64,000 nt of DNA from Octopus sinensis (Eukaryota): the NCBI RefSeq assembly GCF_006345805.1, contig NC_043016.1:7378001-7442000 (forward strand), given 5' to 3'. Position numbers and translations under genes: made by a program. The notes beneath the pieces were generated by a model. The model was not told the origin of the DNA. It ran no database searches and saw only the letters and a list, made by a program, of their open reading frames with translations. Each line of letters begins with the position of its first letter. Within the stretch, counting starts at the first letter, position 1. Below, piece after piece: positions 17,375-64,000 of this stretch.

Positions 17375-17570
17375 ATGTTATAATTTAGAACAAACAGTAA
17401 GTTGTTATAGTACTCAGAGTTTCAAATGTTGGAACCAAGAGCTACAATGCATTCTCGTTAGCTATTAATGGCAATAACTGACGAGAATGCATTGTAGCTC
17501 TTTGCTCTGACATTTGAAACTCTGAGTACTATAATGACAGCCTTTTACTGTTTGTTCTAGATTATAACAT
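17375..17570. repeat. ~95-bp-arm inverted repeat carrying a hammerhead fold in each arm
   Basis: 17375-17466 is the reverse complement of 17473-17570; plus arm reads CTGACGA-GAATG...CATTT-GAAA-CTCTGAG-TA-CTAT. Confidence 0.85.
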
Positions 17571-17779
17571 ATATAAATAAATAATCCTCTATTTCTCTAA
17601 TATCAAGGTCTCATTCTTCTGTTGTCCCTTTATATATATATATATATATATATATATATATATAACATGTTTGTATACACACGCACATATATATATTATA
17701 TATGTATATACACATGTGTATAAATATATTATATATACATGTATATATACATGATATTGTATATAAGGGTGTATGAGTG

Positions 17780-18180
17780 CATGGCATGTAGGAGGCACCA
17801 TTCAAGCGTGATCGTTACCAGCATCGCCTTACTGGCACCTGTGGCGTTGGCATGTGTATAAAATTCAAGCGAGGTTGTTGCCAGTACCGCCTGTCTGGCC
17901 CAAAAAATTTGAGCGAGGTCATTGCCAGTACCGCCTGACTGGCCCATGTGTAAAAATTCGAGCATGGTCGTTGCCAGTGCCGCCTGACTGGCCCCCGTGC
18001 CAGTGGCACGTAAAAAGCACCCACTACACTCTTGGAGTGATTGGCGTTAGAAATGGCATCCAGCTGTAGAAACTCTGCCAGATCAAGACTGGAGCTTGGT
18101 GCAGCCACCTGGTAAGCCAGCCCTCAGTCAAACCGTCCAACCCATGGAAAGCGGACGTTAAACGACGACGATGATGATGA
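17780..18180 (+). mobile_element. Solo RTE LINE 3' end with internal subrepeats
   Basis: Repeated 'gttgccagtaccgcctgactggc' units, 'ggcgttagaaatggcatccagctgtagaaac', then 'ggacgttaaacgacgacgatgatga' tail. Confidence 0.85.
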
Positions 18181-19121
18181 TATATTTGAGTATATACCTA
18201 CCAATATATATGTACTGTGTGTGTTTGCATACATGTGCTGGGGTGTGCACATAAGGATACGTATGCACAGACATGCACACATGCTAGTGTATACTTTTTA
18301 TTCATTTTGACTTTTTTTTTTCTATTTCACGAATGTCTTTTGTTAATTCACTCACGCTCTCTATTTTTAATCAGTTGCCTTCATCGCACGCATTCAACAC
18401 TTGCAACACACAATGCATTTAGTCTTTACACAAACACCATTTACACACACACACACACATAGATACACACAAACACACACACATAGACATTAAACATCGA
18501 CGAACCCTAACCCTAACCCTAATTTTCATATTTCTGCTCTCTCTCTCTTGTTTCTGTCTCTTTTTCTCTCCCTCTCTCCTCTCTCTCCCTCTCTCTATGT
18601 CTCATTCTGTCTCTCTCTCTCTCTCTCTTTCTCTCCATATTTATAAATATATAATTCCTTCTTTCCGTCTGTCTTTCTCTCATATAATAATTTCCTGTGT
18701 GTGATTCTTTTGCAAGTTCTATTCAAACACAAAAACCCGAATTAAAATGTCTCAGTAGATAATGAAAGATTAATGATGAATGACTAAAGACTGAAGCAAG
18801 TCATACATTAAATGTTATGAAACCATTTCCTTGTCTAAAAGTATATTTAAGAATAAAGCTGATTTCCCATTCCCTTCTTTAGAGTTATTCTTTTACTGTT
18901 CATTTACTGGTATCAATCATTCAACTGTGGCCATATTGGGGCACTGCCTTCAACGGTGTTTAGTTCATCATATTCATAACATTACTTATTTCACTCTGAT
19001 GTTTATCAATCTCAGTTTATCGGATTGCAAAGTTTTTACATTTTTTGCACATATGGCATAAAGTGATGCACTGATTTACACCAGAATGCACAAGCACACA
19101 TGTGCATGTATTTAGGTATTC

Positions 19122-19531
19122 AGGTGCTGGCATGGCTGTGTGGTAAGAAGCTTGCTTCCCAACCACATGCTTCTGGGTTCAGTCTCACTATGTGGCACCT
19201 TGGGCAAGTGTCTTATACTATAGCTGCAGGCAGACCAAAGCCTTGTGGGTGAATTTGGTCGACAGAAACTGAGAGAAGCCCTTCGCATACATATATGTGT
19301 GTGTGCATCGTTGTGTCTTTGTCCCCTCACCCCCCATTATCACTTGACAACCGATGTTGGTTTGTTTACATTCCTGTAACTTAGTAGTTCGGCAAAAGAG
19401 ACAGAATAAGTTCTAGGCTTACAAAGAATAAGTCATGAGGTCAATTTCTTCAACTAAAACCCTTTAAGGCGGTGCTCCAGCATGGCTGCAGTCAAATGAC
19501 TGAAACAAGTAAAAGAATAAAAGAATAAAAG
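19122..19531 (+). mobile_element. SINE, family A (tRNA-like head, CORE-like 'ccttgggcaagtgtctt')
   Basis: A box 'tggctgtgtggtaag', B box 'gggttcagtctc', 3' end 'gctccagcatggctgcagtcaaatgactgaaacaagtaaaagaat'; more than 10 copies in the window. Confidence 0.85.
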
Positions 19532-19894
19532 TGTATGTACATTACAAGGAGTTACTCCAGATCAAACCCCTACTTCTCTGCATTGAGAGTTACTCCAGGT
19601 CAAACCCCTGCTTCTCAGATTTCACACTATAGACATGTGATTGAAATGTCACAGGGAAAAATTACAAGCTGGAATTTTGAAGCCAAACCAATGGGCCGGA
19701 GACTTAGGAGTAGACTAAGAATGAGATAAGATAATTGCATAATATTCAATCCATAGTTTCAGTTGGTCATATTTGGAAATCCAGCAGGAAATTGTAATGA
19801 TGGTTGCTTTTGATAAGATACTATGGAGAACTCTATTACCACAATACTCCCAGGAATAGTGGATGGAGAAGATGAATGCATAGGTATTATATTG

Positions 19895-20201
19895 TTGTTT
19901 TGTTTTTGTTTGTTCCTTCTCGAGCCATGCCTGGCTCATAAGGGCTGGTTTCCCAGTTTCCTTGGCATATAGGTTCCCCACCTGGATGGGATGCCGGTCC
20001 ATCGCAGGTGAGCTGCAAGATTCAGGAGGAAAGAGTGAGAGAAAGTTCTGGCGAAAGAGTCAGCAGAAGTTCACCATTACCTTCTGCCGGAGCCGTGTGG
20101 AACTTAAGTGTTTCGCTCATAAACACTCACATCCCCCAGTCTGAGATTTGAACTCGCAATCCCTCGACCGCGCTGCTTTAATTACTAGGCCATGTGCCTC
20201 C
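19895..20201 (-). mobile_element. SINE, family C (tRNA head, V-domain-like 'cctgcgatggaccggcatcccatccagg')
   Basis: Colinear with 62168-62471; A-rich (CAAAA)n tail. Confidence 0.8.
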
Positions 20202-20325
20202 ATAGGTATAATATATATATATATATTGGTAAAAACAGTAAGATAACAAAAGAAAGAAAGAGACCTCAATATTATGTAAATAGAGGAATTTATCTGTAAA
20301 TATAATATGTGACAATTATTCGGTA

Positions 20326-20395
20326 GCCAAGATAAAACTCTGAGTTTCGGATGCTGAGGTGGAAATCCACACCACCATCTCTTCAGTTATCTGGC
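20326..20395 (-). ncRNA. Putative type I hammerhead ribozyme
   Basis: Minus strand: GCCAGATAA-CTGAAGA-GATG..GTGGA/TCCAC..CATC-C-GAAA-CTCAGAG-TT-TTATCTTGGC; intact core and 9-bp stem I with one bulge. Confidence 0.7.
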
Positions 20396-62167: not shown

Positions 62168-62471
62168 TGTTTGTTCCTTCTCGAGCCATGCTTGGCTCAT
62201 AAGGGCCGTTTCCCTGGTTTCTTTGGCATATAGGTTCCCCACCTGGATGGGACACCGGTCCGTTGCAGGTGAGCTGCAAGATGCAGGAGGAAAGAATGAG
62301 AGAAAGTTGTGGTGAAAGAGTCAGCAGAAGTTTCGCCAATACCTTCTGCTGGAGCCACGTGGAGCTTAGGTGTTTTGCTCATAAACACACCCATCGCCTG
62401 GTCTGAGATTCGAACCCACGGTCCCTCGACCGCGAGTATGCTGCTCTAACCACTAGGCCATGTACCTCCAC
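62168..62471 (-). mobile_element. SINE family C
   Basis: Colinear with 19895-20201; B box 'gggttcgaatctc'. Confidence 0.85.
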
Positions 62472-62479
62472 AAAATAAT

Positions 62480-62731
62480 AAATGCGCCCTTTTTTAAAGC
62501 CTAGCCAGGCTCATGGGTCCGGTTTCCCGGTTTCAATGGCATATGTGTTCCCCAGCCAGACGGGACACCAGTCCATCGCAGCGTTACTCATTTTTGCCAG
62601 CTGAGTGGAGGGTGCAACGTGAAATGAAGTGTTCTGCTCAAGAACACAACATGTCGCCTAGTCCAGGAATCAAAACCGCAATCTTATGATCATGATGCTG
62701 ACACCCTAACTACTAAGCCACGCGCCTCCAC
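62480..62731 (-). mobile_element. SINE with tRNA head, CORE-like centre and V-domain-like segment
   Basis: Minus strand 'ggaggcgcgtggcttagtagttag...ttcttgagcagaacacttcatttcacgttgc...ctgcgatggactggtgtcccgtc'. Confidence 0.75.
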
Positions 62732-63505
62732 CCTTCTATTGCACTCACATACCTCCACGAATCTAGTCACCCAATGTGGGCTCTTTGACATTGTGTCTGC
62801 CTCATACATGACAGCCTTCATGTTGCAGTGTGGCCTCTGCATTAGCATCTTGCTTTGGTCTCAAGTGTGAGTCTACCTATCAATAATACTAAGCTCACAA
62901 TTAAAAGGCGCGCTTAAGGTATGACTCAAGAGTGTGGACATTAAAAGCAATAACAATGATGATGATACATACACAAATATATATTTACATATGCAACAGG
63001 CTTCTTTCAGTTTCTGTTTACCTCATGCATGCATAAAGCTATAATGGGAGAGACTTGCCCAAGATGTCAAGCAATGTGACTCAGTTGGGAAAAAATATCC
63101 CCACATACAGTTTCATAGTTGACTTCACTTGAATATGAAGATAACAATTACTACCATGCAAGGCAACAATTCCAACGTCTGTAGATGGAAATTCCATAAA
63201 TTTACACAAGATTGTATCTAACTGACAGTATCGCAAATGTTAAATGGAAGATGAAATTATGTAATAATATTCTGCTATTCGTATATCACAACATGCGATA
63301 TAAATGATATAAATAAGTTTCCTTAGTTGCAAATATCTGGTGGATGATTCATTTTTTTATCATTATATCAAAAACATATTCAGAAAAACTCCAAATCTTT
63401 TATCTTTGTATTTAGACAATATACATGTAAGTGTATGTATGTGTATGGGTGTGCATATATATATATGCACACTGCATTCTTTCATATATTTATATTTAAA
63501 AAAAA

Positions 63506-63740
63506 AATATATATATATGTATGTATGTATGTGTGTATGTATGTATGTATGTATGTATGCATGCATGTATGTATGTATATATACATACATATATATATGT
63601 ATGTATATATACATATATATATATGTATGTATGTATATATACATATATATATATATATATATATATATATATATATATATATATATATATATGTATGTAT
63701 GTATGTATGTATGTGTGCATGTATGTATATATACATATAT
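63506..63740. repeat. (TATG)n/(TA)n microsatellite
   Basis: Simple repeat. Confidence 0.95.
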
Positions 63741-63845
63741 ACCGGAGTAAACACATAAATGTGAAACAAAGTGGAAAAAAGAGTACTCAAATACCAATGG
63801 TAGAATAATATGCTTTATTTAAAGCAGTAGAACATTCAACAAAAC

Positions 63846-63883
63846 CTGTTACTCTGAGTTTCCCGTTGCCGTTCATCGGACAG
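63846..63883 (-). ncRNA. Putative minimal type I hammerhead ribozyme (CCGAUGA core variant) in a fold-back element 63813-63960
   Basis: Minus strand: CTGT-CCGATGA-A-CG-GCAA-CG-G-GAAA-CTCAGAG-TA-ACAG; mirrored on the plus arm at 63894-63927. Confidence 0.65.
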
Positions 63884-64000
63884 TTTTTTCTAGCCGATGA
63901 ACGGCAACAGGAAACTCAGAGTAACAGGTTTTGTTGAATTTTCTGCTGCTTTAAATAAAGTATATATATATATATATATATATATAATATATATATATAT

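Follow-up and report, generated by a model that had tools for sequence, protein, structure and literature searches.

Type I hammerhead motifs and one-tailed head-to-head insertions attributed to Penelope-like elements in the genome of Octopus sinensis

The window analyzed here, a 64-kb stretch of contig NC_043016.1, harbors hammerhead motifs of seven repeat families (P1, P2, P3, A1, A2, B and C). Near its right end lies a P1 copy (63742..63960, minus strand), in which the final ~150 nt of a Hydra-type Penelope-like element (PLE) are inserted head to head; it consists of a tail (63742-63812), two arms (63813-63889 and 63894-63960) and a CTAG centre (63890-63893), with (TA)n on either side. Its minus-strand hammerhead (63846-63883) is predicted to be cut after 63850; on the plus strand, a 10-nt deletion has removed the 5' strand of stem I. 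P2 (17376..17632, plus strand) also lies in (TA)n and is made up of a fold-back, at about 17376-17571, and a one-sided tail extending to about 17632. Hammerheads occur on both of its strands, as had been predicted for 17407-17532, but each is damaged, by G5A on the minus strand and by a stem I mismatch on the plus strand. P3 (20227..20407, minus strand) is a 5'-truncated PLE 3' end encoding an intact hammerhead at 20326-20395, with a predicted cut after 20336.

A1 and A2 occur in truncated PLE 3' UTRs on the plus strand. That of A1 (52937..53612) contains an intact hammerhead at 53381-53479 (predicted cut after 53475), and that of A2, at about 25830-26990 (bounds by eye), contains an intact hammerhead at 26628..26731 (predicted cut after 26726) with U.U at 10.1/11.1 and a 13-bp stem II. 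B (33584..34705, plus strand) begins with a broken Hydra-type GIY-YIG C-terminus (33584-34256), followed by a 3' UTR with a hammerhead at 34461-34547 (predicted cut after 34541). C (34875..35070, minus strand) carries a small intact hammerhead at 34993-35035, with a predicted cut after 34998. The original prediction had correctly located the A1, A2 and B folds together with their cut sites, as well as those of P1 and P3, yet it listed B as an ordinary fold, when two inner stem I pairs are lost in the window copy (family GG, window AA), and it overlooked the intact C site. Also, the families that it described as unrelated include two related pairs, 26628/53381 and 17407/20326.

Other parts of the window contain partial or variant motifs. 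A probable decayed hammerhead at 25545..25650 (minus strand), already listed as decayed, retains its core except for G12A, has a weak stem I and finds no further homologue among the loci compared. Two more sites listed as decayed, 9040-9095 (minus strand) and 43205-43266, proved to hold hammerhead 3' halves only, and the 5' core assigned to them is not that of the family. The first (9015..9110, minus strand) is the 3' half of a real hammerhead family, three of whose five homologues fold as hammerheads, with the 5' core missing in the window copy; the second is the asymmetric centre (3' half at 43240-43266, plus strand) of a fold-back with 125-bp arms (43117..43417, no strand given). The minimal hammerhead-like fold at 47408..47445 (minus strand) was taken for a decayed copy, but its U at position 6 looks like an A6U variant common to the family, to judge by the 14 of 23 homologues listed, in which position 7 varies. 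An internally deleted fragment of a Neptune-type PLE, from the RT thumb to the CX4CXXC linker (27060..27708, minus strand), lacks a hammerhead and shares 63% identity with intact 782-aa RT+GIY-YIG ORFs elsewhere in the genome. The 26628 hammerhead was considered as a pLTR of the adjacent 27184 ORF fragment and rejected, as it lies on the opposite strand and the Neptune-type family has another 3' end. Regarding host genes, a Pfam search of 112 non-repeat ORFs recovered only a hAT domain above cut-off, a search that short exons would escape.

A type I hammerhead was defined by the core CYGANGA / GAAA / UH, arranged in the type I order and accompanied by three helices. An earlier descriptor with an obligatory Watson-Crick 10.1-11.1 pair gave no match in the window and was then relaxed; the strict type I descriptor used here demands an intact core, a stem I of at least 4 bp and a 3-bp palindromic stem III, with a mismatch or bulge permitted at 10.1/11.1. 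It recovered five sites (26633+, 53385+, 63879-, 35030- and 20386-), against a mean of 0.010 and a maximum of 1 in 300 block dinucleotide shuffles of the window. Permitting one or two stem I mismatches raised the count to six (0.04 in shuffles) and permitting G5A as well to nine (0.24), of which 45291 is probably a chance match. An Rfam search of the window yielded no hit at the gathering threshold and no hammerhead at E<=5 among the 150 of 302 matches listed, a list dominated by (TA)n matches to microRNA models. The missing match lowers the case for membership of those Rfam families, not of the hammerhead fold, and the type I core in the window is real, in an excess far above chance.

Strict matches occur once per 13 kb in the window and about once per 33 kb in 40 arbitrary 10-kb stretches of the genome (12 matches in 400 kb; 1 match in 12 shuffles of these stretches). 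The predicted density of one motif per 6-10 kb thus holds only in the window and with broken copies counted. Extrapolation from the 40 stretches suggests about 80,000 motifs genome-wide (42,000-142,000). The U3-A8 hammerhead variant was also found in the genome.

Compensatory changes, another expectation of the original prediction, are seen between homologous lineages, a non-circular comparison that rests on few events and no formal statistic. Sub-lineages of B differ by C-G to U-A in both stem I and stem III, and A1 and A2 by G.U to C-G and G-C to A-U in stem II and by A-U to G-C in stem III. A cross-family pairing count (60/64 vs 17) was circular and was set aside.

The window hammerheads are very probably motifs of the 3' ends of PLEs, mostly of Hydra type, scattered as 5'-truncated and head-to-head copies in (TA)n. 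Six of the seven families could be placed downstream of PLE endonuclease ends, as the original prediction of a PLE origin implies, five of them with Hydra-type endonucleases and one (C) with a Neptune-type. In B, 26 of 30 endonuclease loci carry the hammerhead, and a full-length relative (L318) has an intact 778-aa ORF, with hammerheads in both pLTRs and in an inverted 5'-truncated copy; its pLTR partial tandems and inverted copy are arranged as in EN+ PLEs. This ORF had no match in Pfam; its RT and endonuclease motifs were read by eye, and it is 33% identical to the parent of P1. For the P1 parent itself, 552 exact copies of the motif were counted, accompanied by RT and endonuclease ORF pieces; an RVT_1 match falls below cut-off (E=0.005). 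Six of 30 longer A1 copies have a Hydra-type endonuclease end in the same orientation about 1 kb upstream, and 1 of 20 P3 copies (L095) has one about 0.9 kb upstream; an endonuclease end also precedes A2 in 1 of 20 (L193), so that the A2 and P3 links are of one copy each. A Neptune-type ORF precedes C in L443 and L106; the linkage counts for C are 1 of 20 and 1 of 6. The link of P2 is indirect, through its tail, 76% like that of P3 over 64 nt.

Assignment to the Hydra clade is a motif reading, made against section 11 of PMC8557442: DKT, the lack of CCHH, and CxxC + CxH around E and N were read by eye in L318, L379 and L385. The CxCX5C Hydra linker is present in the P1 parent, absent in B and was not seen for A1, A2 or P3. 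Insertion into (TA)n is evident in P1: of 109 copies, 60 arm ends and 60 tail ends are followed by TATATATA, and the other ends read are for the most part TA-like. Membership in MITEs was rejected on account of the one-sided tail and of identical ends on 0.2-3.5-kb insertions enclosing a PLE ORF. Non-LTR retrozymes were likewise rejected, since no tandem array covers any hammerhead site in the window and copies are solo or inverted.

Once inserted, hammerhead cores decay neutrally, as assessed in P1, the only family given such a clean test (172/180 arms picked by the centre motif alone). The common lineage changes inside the P1 hammerhead fall at N7, the GNRA loop, 11.1 and N4, and the core changes at a similar rate to the rest (15/1197, 1.25%, vs 66/4794, 1.38%; p=0.89). 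Selection on genomic cores, not seen in this unbiased set, was hinted at by BLAST-ranked copies of all seven families, with fewer changes in the core (41/1581 vs 389/7164 elsewhere; p=6e-7), a test confounded by sub-family variants and edge columns.

These data bear on the claim that dispersed hammerheads act in cis and cut read-through host transcripts, which now appears improbable. The five intact cores in 64 kb and the extrapolated total would favor it, as would the folding energies of the five non-hairpin sites, where the monomer fold lies 2.6-6.4 kcal/mol above the minimum, a penalty payable by core contacts, so that some solo cleavage is possible; a stem III of 2-3 bp might also form alone. 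Against it stand the neutral decay of the cores, the broken stem I of B, the burial of two of the six main sites in fold-backs that lock them by 67-77 kcal/mol and the Pfam search, which identified no host gene. Likewise, published minimal PLE hammerheads depend on dimers or on protein: single ones showed no cleavage alone (PMC4209133) or required the PLE protein, with RNA-seq ends absent at the site (PMC11167929). Fold-back junctions gave no clear cleavage footprint at the P1 cut site: only 21 fall near it, none blunt at the cut, versus 323 just upstream, which points to mostly uncut templates. In all likelihood, selection keeps the motif only in active master RNAs, and cleavage of single genomic copies is rare, stem III being too short on its own and fold-back copies hiding the motif inside a long hairpin. 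The scattered copies are probably inactive passengers. Dimer-cleaving PLE hammerheads have reportedly been described by Lunse et al., whose account may already include the stem II mismatches seen here.

The head-to-head insertions of P1 follow a one-tail rule. Exactly one tail is present in 18/18 long pairs, in 15/15 young fold-backs and in 89 of 90 short ones, on either side equally often: of the short fold-backs, 41 have it on the left and 48 on the right, one lacks it and none has two. Two further motif pairs, one tail-to-tail (L391) and one tandem (L392), have no tail. In the long pairs the longer arm is the tailed one in 8, the tail-less one in 8 and neither in 2. The short fold-back has a fixed size (220 bp) and centre in 323 copies, the centre being native sequence of the longer autonomous element (552 copies), with the main junction hotspot 12 nt upstream of the hammerhead core. 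Centres are T..C/G..A in 102 copies, G..C in 39 and T..A in 1; in the younger lineage, the first 50 of 181 listed comprise 21 asymmetric, 29 G..C and 0 T..A. A second junction has a one-base centre, impossible as a hairpin loop, in 16 of 21 cases.

The one-tail rule and the junction spectrum are best accounted for, with somewhat better than even probability, by the end-to-end joining of two cDNAs whose synthesis was primed on opposite strands of the target. In this model, both strands of a (TA)n site would be nicked by the PLE protein and two cDNAs primed on the element RNA, one from an outer start site, with the tail, and one from an inner start site, without it. Their 3' ends would then pair through a short self-complementary patch, followed by fill-in. 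The patch at the hotspot of P1 would be CTAG between two G.A mismatches; these would segregate into two mirror isomers or, if the 3' A's are lost, leave a perfect palindrome. Predicted pairing of the two ends is worth -3.6 to -3.8 kcal/mol, versus 0.0 for the hairpin; the predicted duplex leaves out the flanking T-A pairs, which counts against the model. In L1 twin priming, cDNA is also primed on both target strands and joined through microhomology, much as in this model; in L1, however, both priming events use a single RNA and the inversion does not duplicate the 3' end, whereas P1 has its 3' end twice.

Self-priming of a single molecule into a hairpin, on an antisense template (Arkhipova 2013) and with later removal of one tail by the endonuclease (Craig 2021), is an unlikely source of the inverted copies. 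It correctly predicts palindromic junctions, the absence of T..A centres and identical arms, lineage sites agreeing between arms in 78/85, 70/82 and 73/86 copies; yet a hairpin cannot prime across a junction whose loop has no base or only one, and simple snap-back would never leave the tailed arm shorter, whereas in 4 of the 18 long pairs it is the tail-less arm that exceeds the other, by 1.1-2.6 kb. A few copies, 2-3 of 87 (L234, L265), have arms of different lineages, differing at two lineage sites, which also speaks against self-priming, although assembly error could mimic them. Two-template insertions were not accepted from these mismatches, the copies being too few and assembly error a possible cause.

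Equally unlikely is that insertions begin as long palindromes and later collapse by microhomology-mediated central deletion, the hotspot and isomers then reflecting DNA repair and not integration. Such deletion yields an identical centre spectrum, a point against double priming, since one crossover within the CTAG register can produce T..C, G..C or G..A but never T..A. Relative to long-motif copies, short fold-backs are more frequent in the older lineage (142 vs about 129) than in the younger (181 vs about 386), an excess that also counts against double priming. In turn, collapse leaves the one-tail rule unexplained, almost undiverged short fold-backs exist in the youngest lineage, and near-perfect 3.4-kb palindromes persist (L376). 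Collapse and double priming can coexist. It is highly improbable that errors in assembling or polishing palindromes created the isomers and symmetric arms: P1 copies carry many small indels and come from a single assembly, but contigs from four separate runs show both centre letters, an error symmetric between strands would not yield 39 G..C versus 1 T..A, and kilobase-scale pairs obey the identical one-tail rule. Finally, a self-propagating MITE-like hairpin with flip/flop ends is largely refuted, despite the fixed size and centre and the presence of both isomers in all six concordant haplotypes with at least 2 copies, as the centre is native to the autonomous element and flop copying would yield the T..A centres found only once.

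Generalized from P1, PLEs may integrate by double target priming, with microhomology joining head-to-head cDNAs that start from each target strand and start site, a proposition whose chances we consider even. Inverted copies, one-sided tails and mirror isomers would all follow from this single rule, of which P1 would hold a record in hundreds of insertions. It is doubtful that, in addition, the palindromic stem III of the hammerhead pairs two template RNAs, a role that would account for retention of the fold though cleavage is dispensable and would fit the position of the main hotspot. In the available part of the Poseidon PAc study (Frangieh et al. 2024, PMC11167929), the PLE protein similarly cuts and extends both strands of an AT-rich target in vitro from two RT start sites flanking the tail, the hammerhead is dispensable for insertion and the inverted copy is left unexplained; tails are 30-40 nt there, versus about 70 nt, outside the ORF, here.

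The ribozymes themselves have close relatives. Hydra-clade PLEs share a C-terminal GIY-YIG without CCHH, DKT, CxxC + CxH around E/N, (TA)n targets and a 3' hammerhead, and their published hammerheads include an octopus one, Hydra-1_Obim (Craig et al. 2021, PMC8557442 File S2). U.U at 10.1/11.1 and the CTC-N-GAG stem III appear in that file, where stem I of Hydra-2_aMil equals that of P1. Hydra-1_Obim differs from every window family, which makes these further families; B departs from the clade in lacking the CxCX5C linker and in having RWL in place of RWK, and A1 and A2 in their 13-bp stems II with long loops. The minimal pLTR hammerheads of Cervera & de la Pena (2014, PMC4209133) are likewise of type I with a short palindromic helix III, form many families per genome, occur mostly as solo copies left by truncated PLEs, and include opposite-strand pairs 100-700 bp apart and the U3-A8 variant, but most families here keep a 3-bp palindromic stem III and several have a mismatch, not G-C, at 10.1/11.1. 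That study, with different descriptors, reported 2,000-9,000 motifs, fewer than the roughly 80,000 estimated here, a figure near the 126,247 retrozyme hammerheads of axolotl (PMC7229834). Non-LTR retrozymes (PMC7229834; bioRxiv 10.64898/2026.07.22.740005) also have PLE-related type I hammerheads, but in tandem arrays of 170-400-nt units, unlike the dispersed solo or head-to-head copies of the window.

The ribozyme side is therefore ordinary, abundant animal PLE hammerheads and an octopus Hydra family being already known; new here are several unlisted families and the density estimate near 80,000 motifs. The one-tail and junction result of P1 goes beyond the literature searched. The origin of PLE inverted repeats and one-sided tails was named as open in PMC8557442, and in PMC11167929 their formation is left to 'steps yet to be validated'. 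The P1 counts separate models of how these structures form, and P1 offers a 150-nt natural template with a junction hotspot, fit for the existing in vitro assay.

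The hammerhead sites of all seven families in the window belong to dispersed repeats, and the motifs are hammerheads of Penelope-like element (PLE) pseudo-LTRs (pLTRs) in both working and identity. A strict descriptor, tolerating a mismatch or bulge at 10.1/11.1 (positions in the usual hammerhead numbering), recovered five sites, with cores at 26633 and 53385 on the forward strand and 63879, 35030 and 20386 on the reverse, whereas 300 shuffled versions of the window averaged 0.010. This bears out the original prediction that the folds are real; it had listed most of these cores and overlooked the one at 35030. 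Its site at 34467 matches only when two stem I mismatches are allowed (the B family has GG, the window AA), and the pair at 17407-17532, read as a hammerhead on both strands, is damaged on both. The four sites proposed as decayed versions comprise two 3' halves, one plausible lone decayed copy and one family-wide A6U variant. The fold at 47408-47445 (reverse strand), shared with 23 homologues among the fetched loci, is a minimal family-wide hammerhead-like structure with U at conserved position 6, a variable position 7, a stem II of 4 bp, a CG loop III and a stem I of 5 bp; it may represent a core variant that occurs naturally, or else a lineage that is dead yet went on spreading. A descriptor demanding a Watson-Crick pair at 10.1-11.1 had no match in the window, and Rfam models detected none of the window sites, either at the gathering threshold or among the 150 of 302 rows listed at E<=5.

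Applied to 40 arbitrary 10-kb stretches (400 kb), the strict descriptor gave 12 matches, two of them with a common 3' half, and 12 shuffles of the same stretches gave 1 in total. Sampling thus puts the genome-wide density at about 1 per 33 kb, or about 80,000 motifs in the 2.7 Gb host genome, with a range (42,000-142,000) that is too narrow because matches cluster. Hammerhead types outside the seven window families occur in flanks and arbitrary stretches (fetched loci L118, L344, L356, L358, L419, L005, L042, L450 and L475), the one in L450 being present twice, 490 bp apart.

First-look genome candidates, which are not copy numbers, amount to 775 for P1 (63742-63960, reverse), 421 for A1 (52937-53612, forward), 789 for P2 (17376-17632, forward), 2727 for P3 (20227-20407, reverse), 660 for C (34875-35070, reverse), 3497 for B (33584-34705, forward) and 430 for A2 (26628-26731, forward). 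The B hammerhead of the window lies about 200 bp 3' of a broken GIY-YIG C-terminus and is present in 26 of 30 loci retrieved with the B protein; locus L318 is a full B element whose ORF spans 778 aa, and hammerheads occur in both of its pLTRs and again in an inverted copy. The long parent element of P1 was reached via loose contig ends; its motif occurs 552 times in the genome, and long copies contain pieces of reverse transcriptase and endonuclease ORFs. Both B and P1 carry the Hydra-clade marks set out in section 11 of PMC8557442 (DKT, no CCHH, CxxC + CxH around E/N), as judged from motifs read by eye, and a CxCX5C linker is present in the P1 parent. Among the Hydra hammerheads in File S2 of that article are ones that have U.U at 10.1/11.1 and ones with CTC-N-GAG stems, and the file includes an octopus family. 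An endonuclease end lies about 1 kb upstream of A1 in 6 of 30 longer copies, and upstream of A2 and of P3 in 1 of 20 copies each; a Neptune-type ORF precedes C in 1/6 copies of one set and 1/20 of another, and P2 has an indirect link to PLEs through the similarity of its tail to that of P3.

Full-length Hydra-type ORFs without the CxCX5C linker were found within (TA)n at L318, L319 and L320 (778 aa, with a frame of 854 aa in L320), and a Pfam search of the L318 ORF gave no match. Three further loci (L146, L147 and L148) hold intact Neptune-type ORFs of 782 aa, with a U3-A8 hammerhead core, and were recently active, as indicated by the 99.7% identity between the pLTRs of L147.

The window itself has a GC content of 35% and abundant (TA)n, and about half of it consists of repeats matched in other fetched loci; the repeat content points to an octopus as host. 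It also holds a decayed Hydra-type endonuclease remnant (61866-62290, reverse; 30-36% to the P1 parent), downstream of which no hammerhead was found, pieces of a decayed hAT transposase (55752-57397, forward; Dimer_Tnp_hAT at 57122-57397, E=1e-9) and two broken LINE fragments, one with an endonuclease domain (2660-4404, reverse; PF14529 at 3606-4061, E=1e-9) and one with an RT-like piece containing a PHD finger (38029-39000, forward). Further features are a hairpin-like repeat with a 174-bp tandem (near 22018-22172), a tandem duplication of 327 bp between (TA)n tracts (47726-48419) and a non-repeat 113-aa frame that may contain a host exon (32957-33295, forward; weak Pfam match, E=0.005).

Dispersed copies had been proposed to cut transcripts reading through them, a claim that the present data leave unsupported. 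In inserted P1 copies (172 of 180 arms, 8 truncated ones being left out) the core decays like its flanks (15/1197 changes versus 66/4794 among the remaining non-CpG cells, p=0.89). When copies from the seven families were taken by BLAST rank (170 of 178 rows), a cruder comparison, in which sub-family variants and edge columns are mixed, pointed in the opposite direction (2.6% in the core versus 5.4%, p=6e-7). In a model without core contacts, the monomer hammerhead fold costs 2.6-6.4 kcal/mol at five non-hairpin sites and 67-77 kcal/mol within two fold-backs, and single minimal PLE hammerheads showed no cleavage in results given in PMC4209133. Between lineages, compensatory changes occur in stems I and III of B and between A1 and A2, and common P1 lineage changes sit at tolerant hammerhead positions. 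Selection on the hammerhead thus likely acts in master RNAs, and the dispersed copies are likely inert. At L209:1547, position A15.1 of a P1 hammerhead, A>G makes up about 12% of the contig depth in one run and 9% in a second, both presumed to be RNA, and about 0.1% in two others, with G in 2/172 genomic arms; the hairpin may undergo A-to-I editing, or a single variant copy may be expressed, the run type being a guess and the individuals differing.

The P1 element at 63742-63960 consists of an arm, a CTAG centre and a second arm, with a 71-nt tail on a single side. Among 142 older-lineage centres, 102 are asymmetric (T..C; G..A on the other strand), 39 are G..C and 1 is T..A, with none in reversed controls; of the 181 centres of the younger lineage, the first 50, counted by hand, include 21 asymmetric, 29 G..C and no T..A. 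The tail lies on the left in 41 and on the right in 48 of 90 (out of 102) asymmetric older copies, being absent from 1 and on both sides in none. Nineteen G..C copies and the T..A copy gave one tail in 16 and none in 4 (truncated), and exactly one tail was seen in all 15 younger fold-backs fetched and in 18/18 head-to-head pairs, the set being drawn from the first 100 motifs listed out of the parent's 552. The longer arm of these pairs is tailed in 8 and tail-less in 8, with 2 equal (5 versus 4 where the arms differ by >100 bp). Three short fold-backs (L234, L265 and L284) have arms that are unlike at two lineage-diagnostic sites, as if from two RNAs.

It is somewhat probable that such insertions are made by double priming of two cDNAs from opposite target strands. 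According to PMC11167929, the PAc protein acts on both strands of its target, cutting and extending each, two start sites bound the tail, and the PAc hammerhead requires protein for cleavage and is dispensable for insertion. Each target strand would prime synthesis on element RNA from a start site of its own, and two cDNAs of the same polarity would meet 3' end to 3' end, joining only at self-complementary sequence. At the P1 hotspot the pairing would be CTAG flanked by two G.A mismatches, whose segregation would yield two isomers at 1:1; loss of 3' A's would give G..C, and T..A would have no easy route. Twin priming is known for L1. At a second P1 junction, 16 of 21 cases have a centre of a single base, which is too short for a hairpin loop; pairing of two ends scores about -3.7 kcal/mol, against 0 for a hairpin.

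Long palindromes are unstable, and their collapse after insertion, which may coexist with double priming, would yield the same centres and gains mild support from the lineage ratios, but we regard it as unlikely. Self-priming into a hairpin, as in PMC3846280, with later removal of the tail, as in PMC8557442, would account for identical arms and also seems improbable: it leaves longer tail-less arms and zero- or one-base loops unexplained. A self-copying P1 hairpin fails as an explanation, since the centre is native parent sequence and each fold-back must therefore have been made anew.

The hammerhead observation is real, explained and known in kind. The window sites form no retrozyme array, and the elements are not MITEs. 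The families are new within a kind already known, and the supplements of bioRxiv 10.64898/2026.07.22.740005 could list cephalopod families; the main text of the 2026 octopus repeat annotation (PMC13282606) contains neither "hammerhead" nor "ribozyme". Neither double priming for PLEs nor isomer counts like those of P1 were found in full-text searches that covered mainly open-access papers, which makes this a weak absence. The main value of the finding is as a clue to how PLEs integrate.
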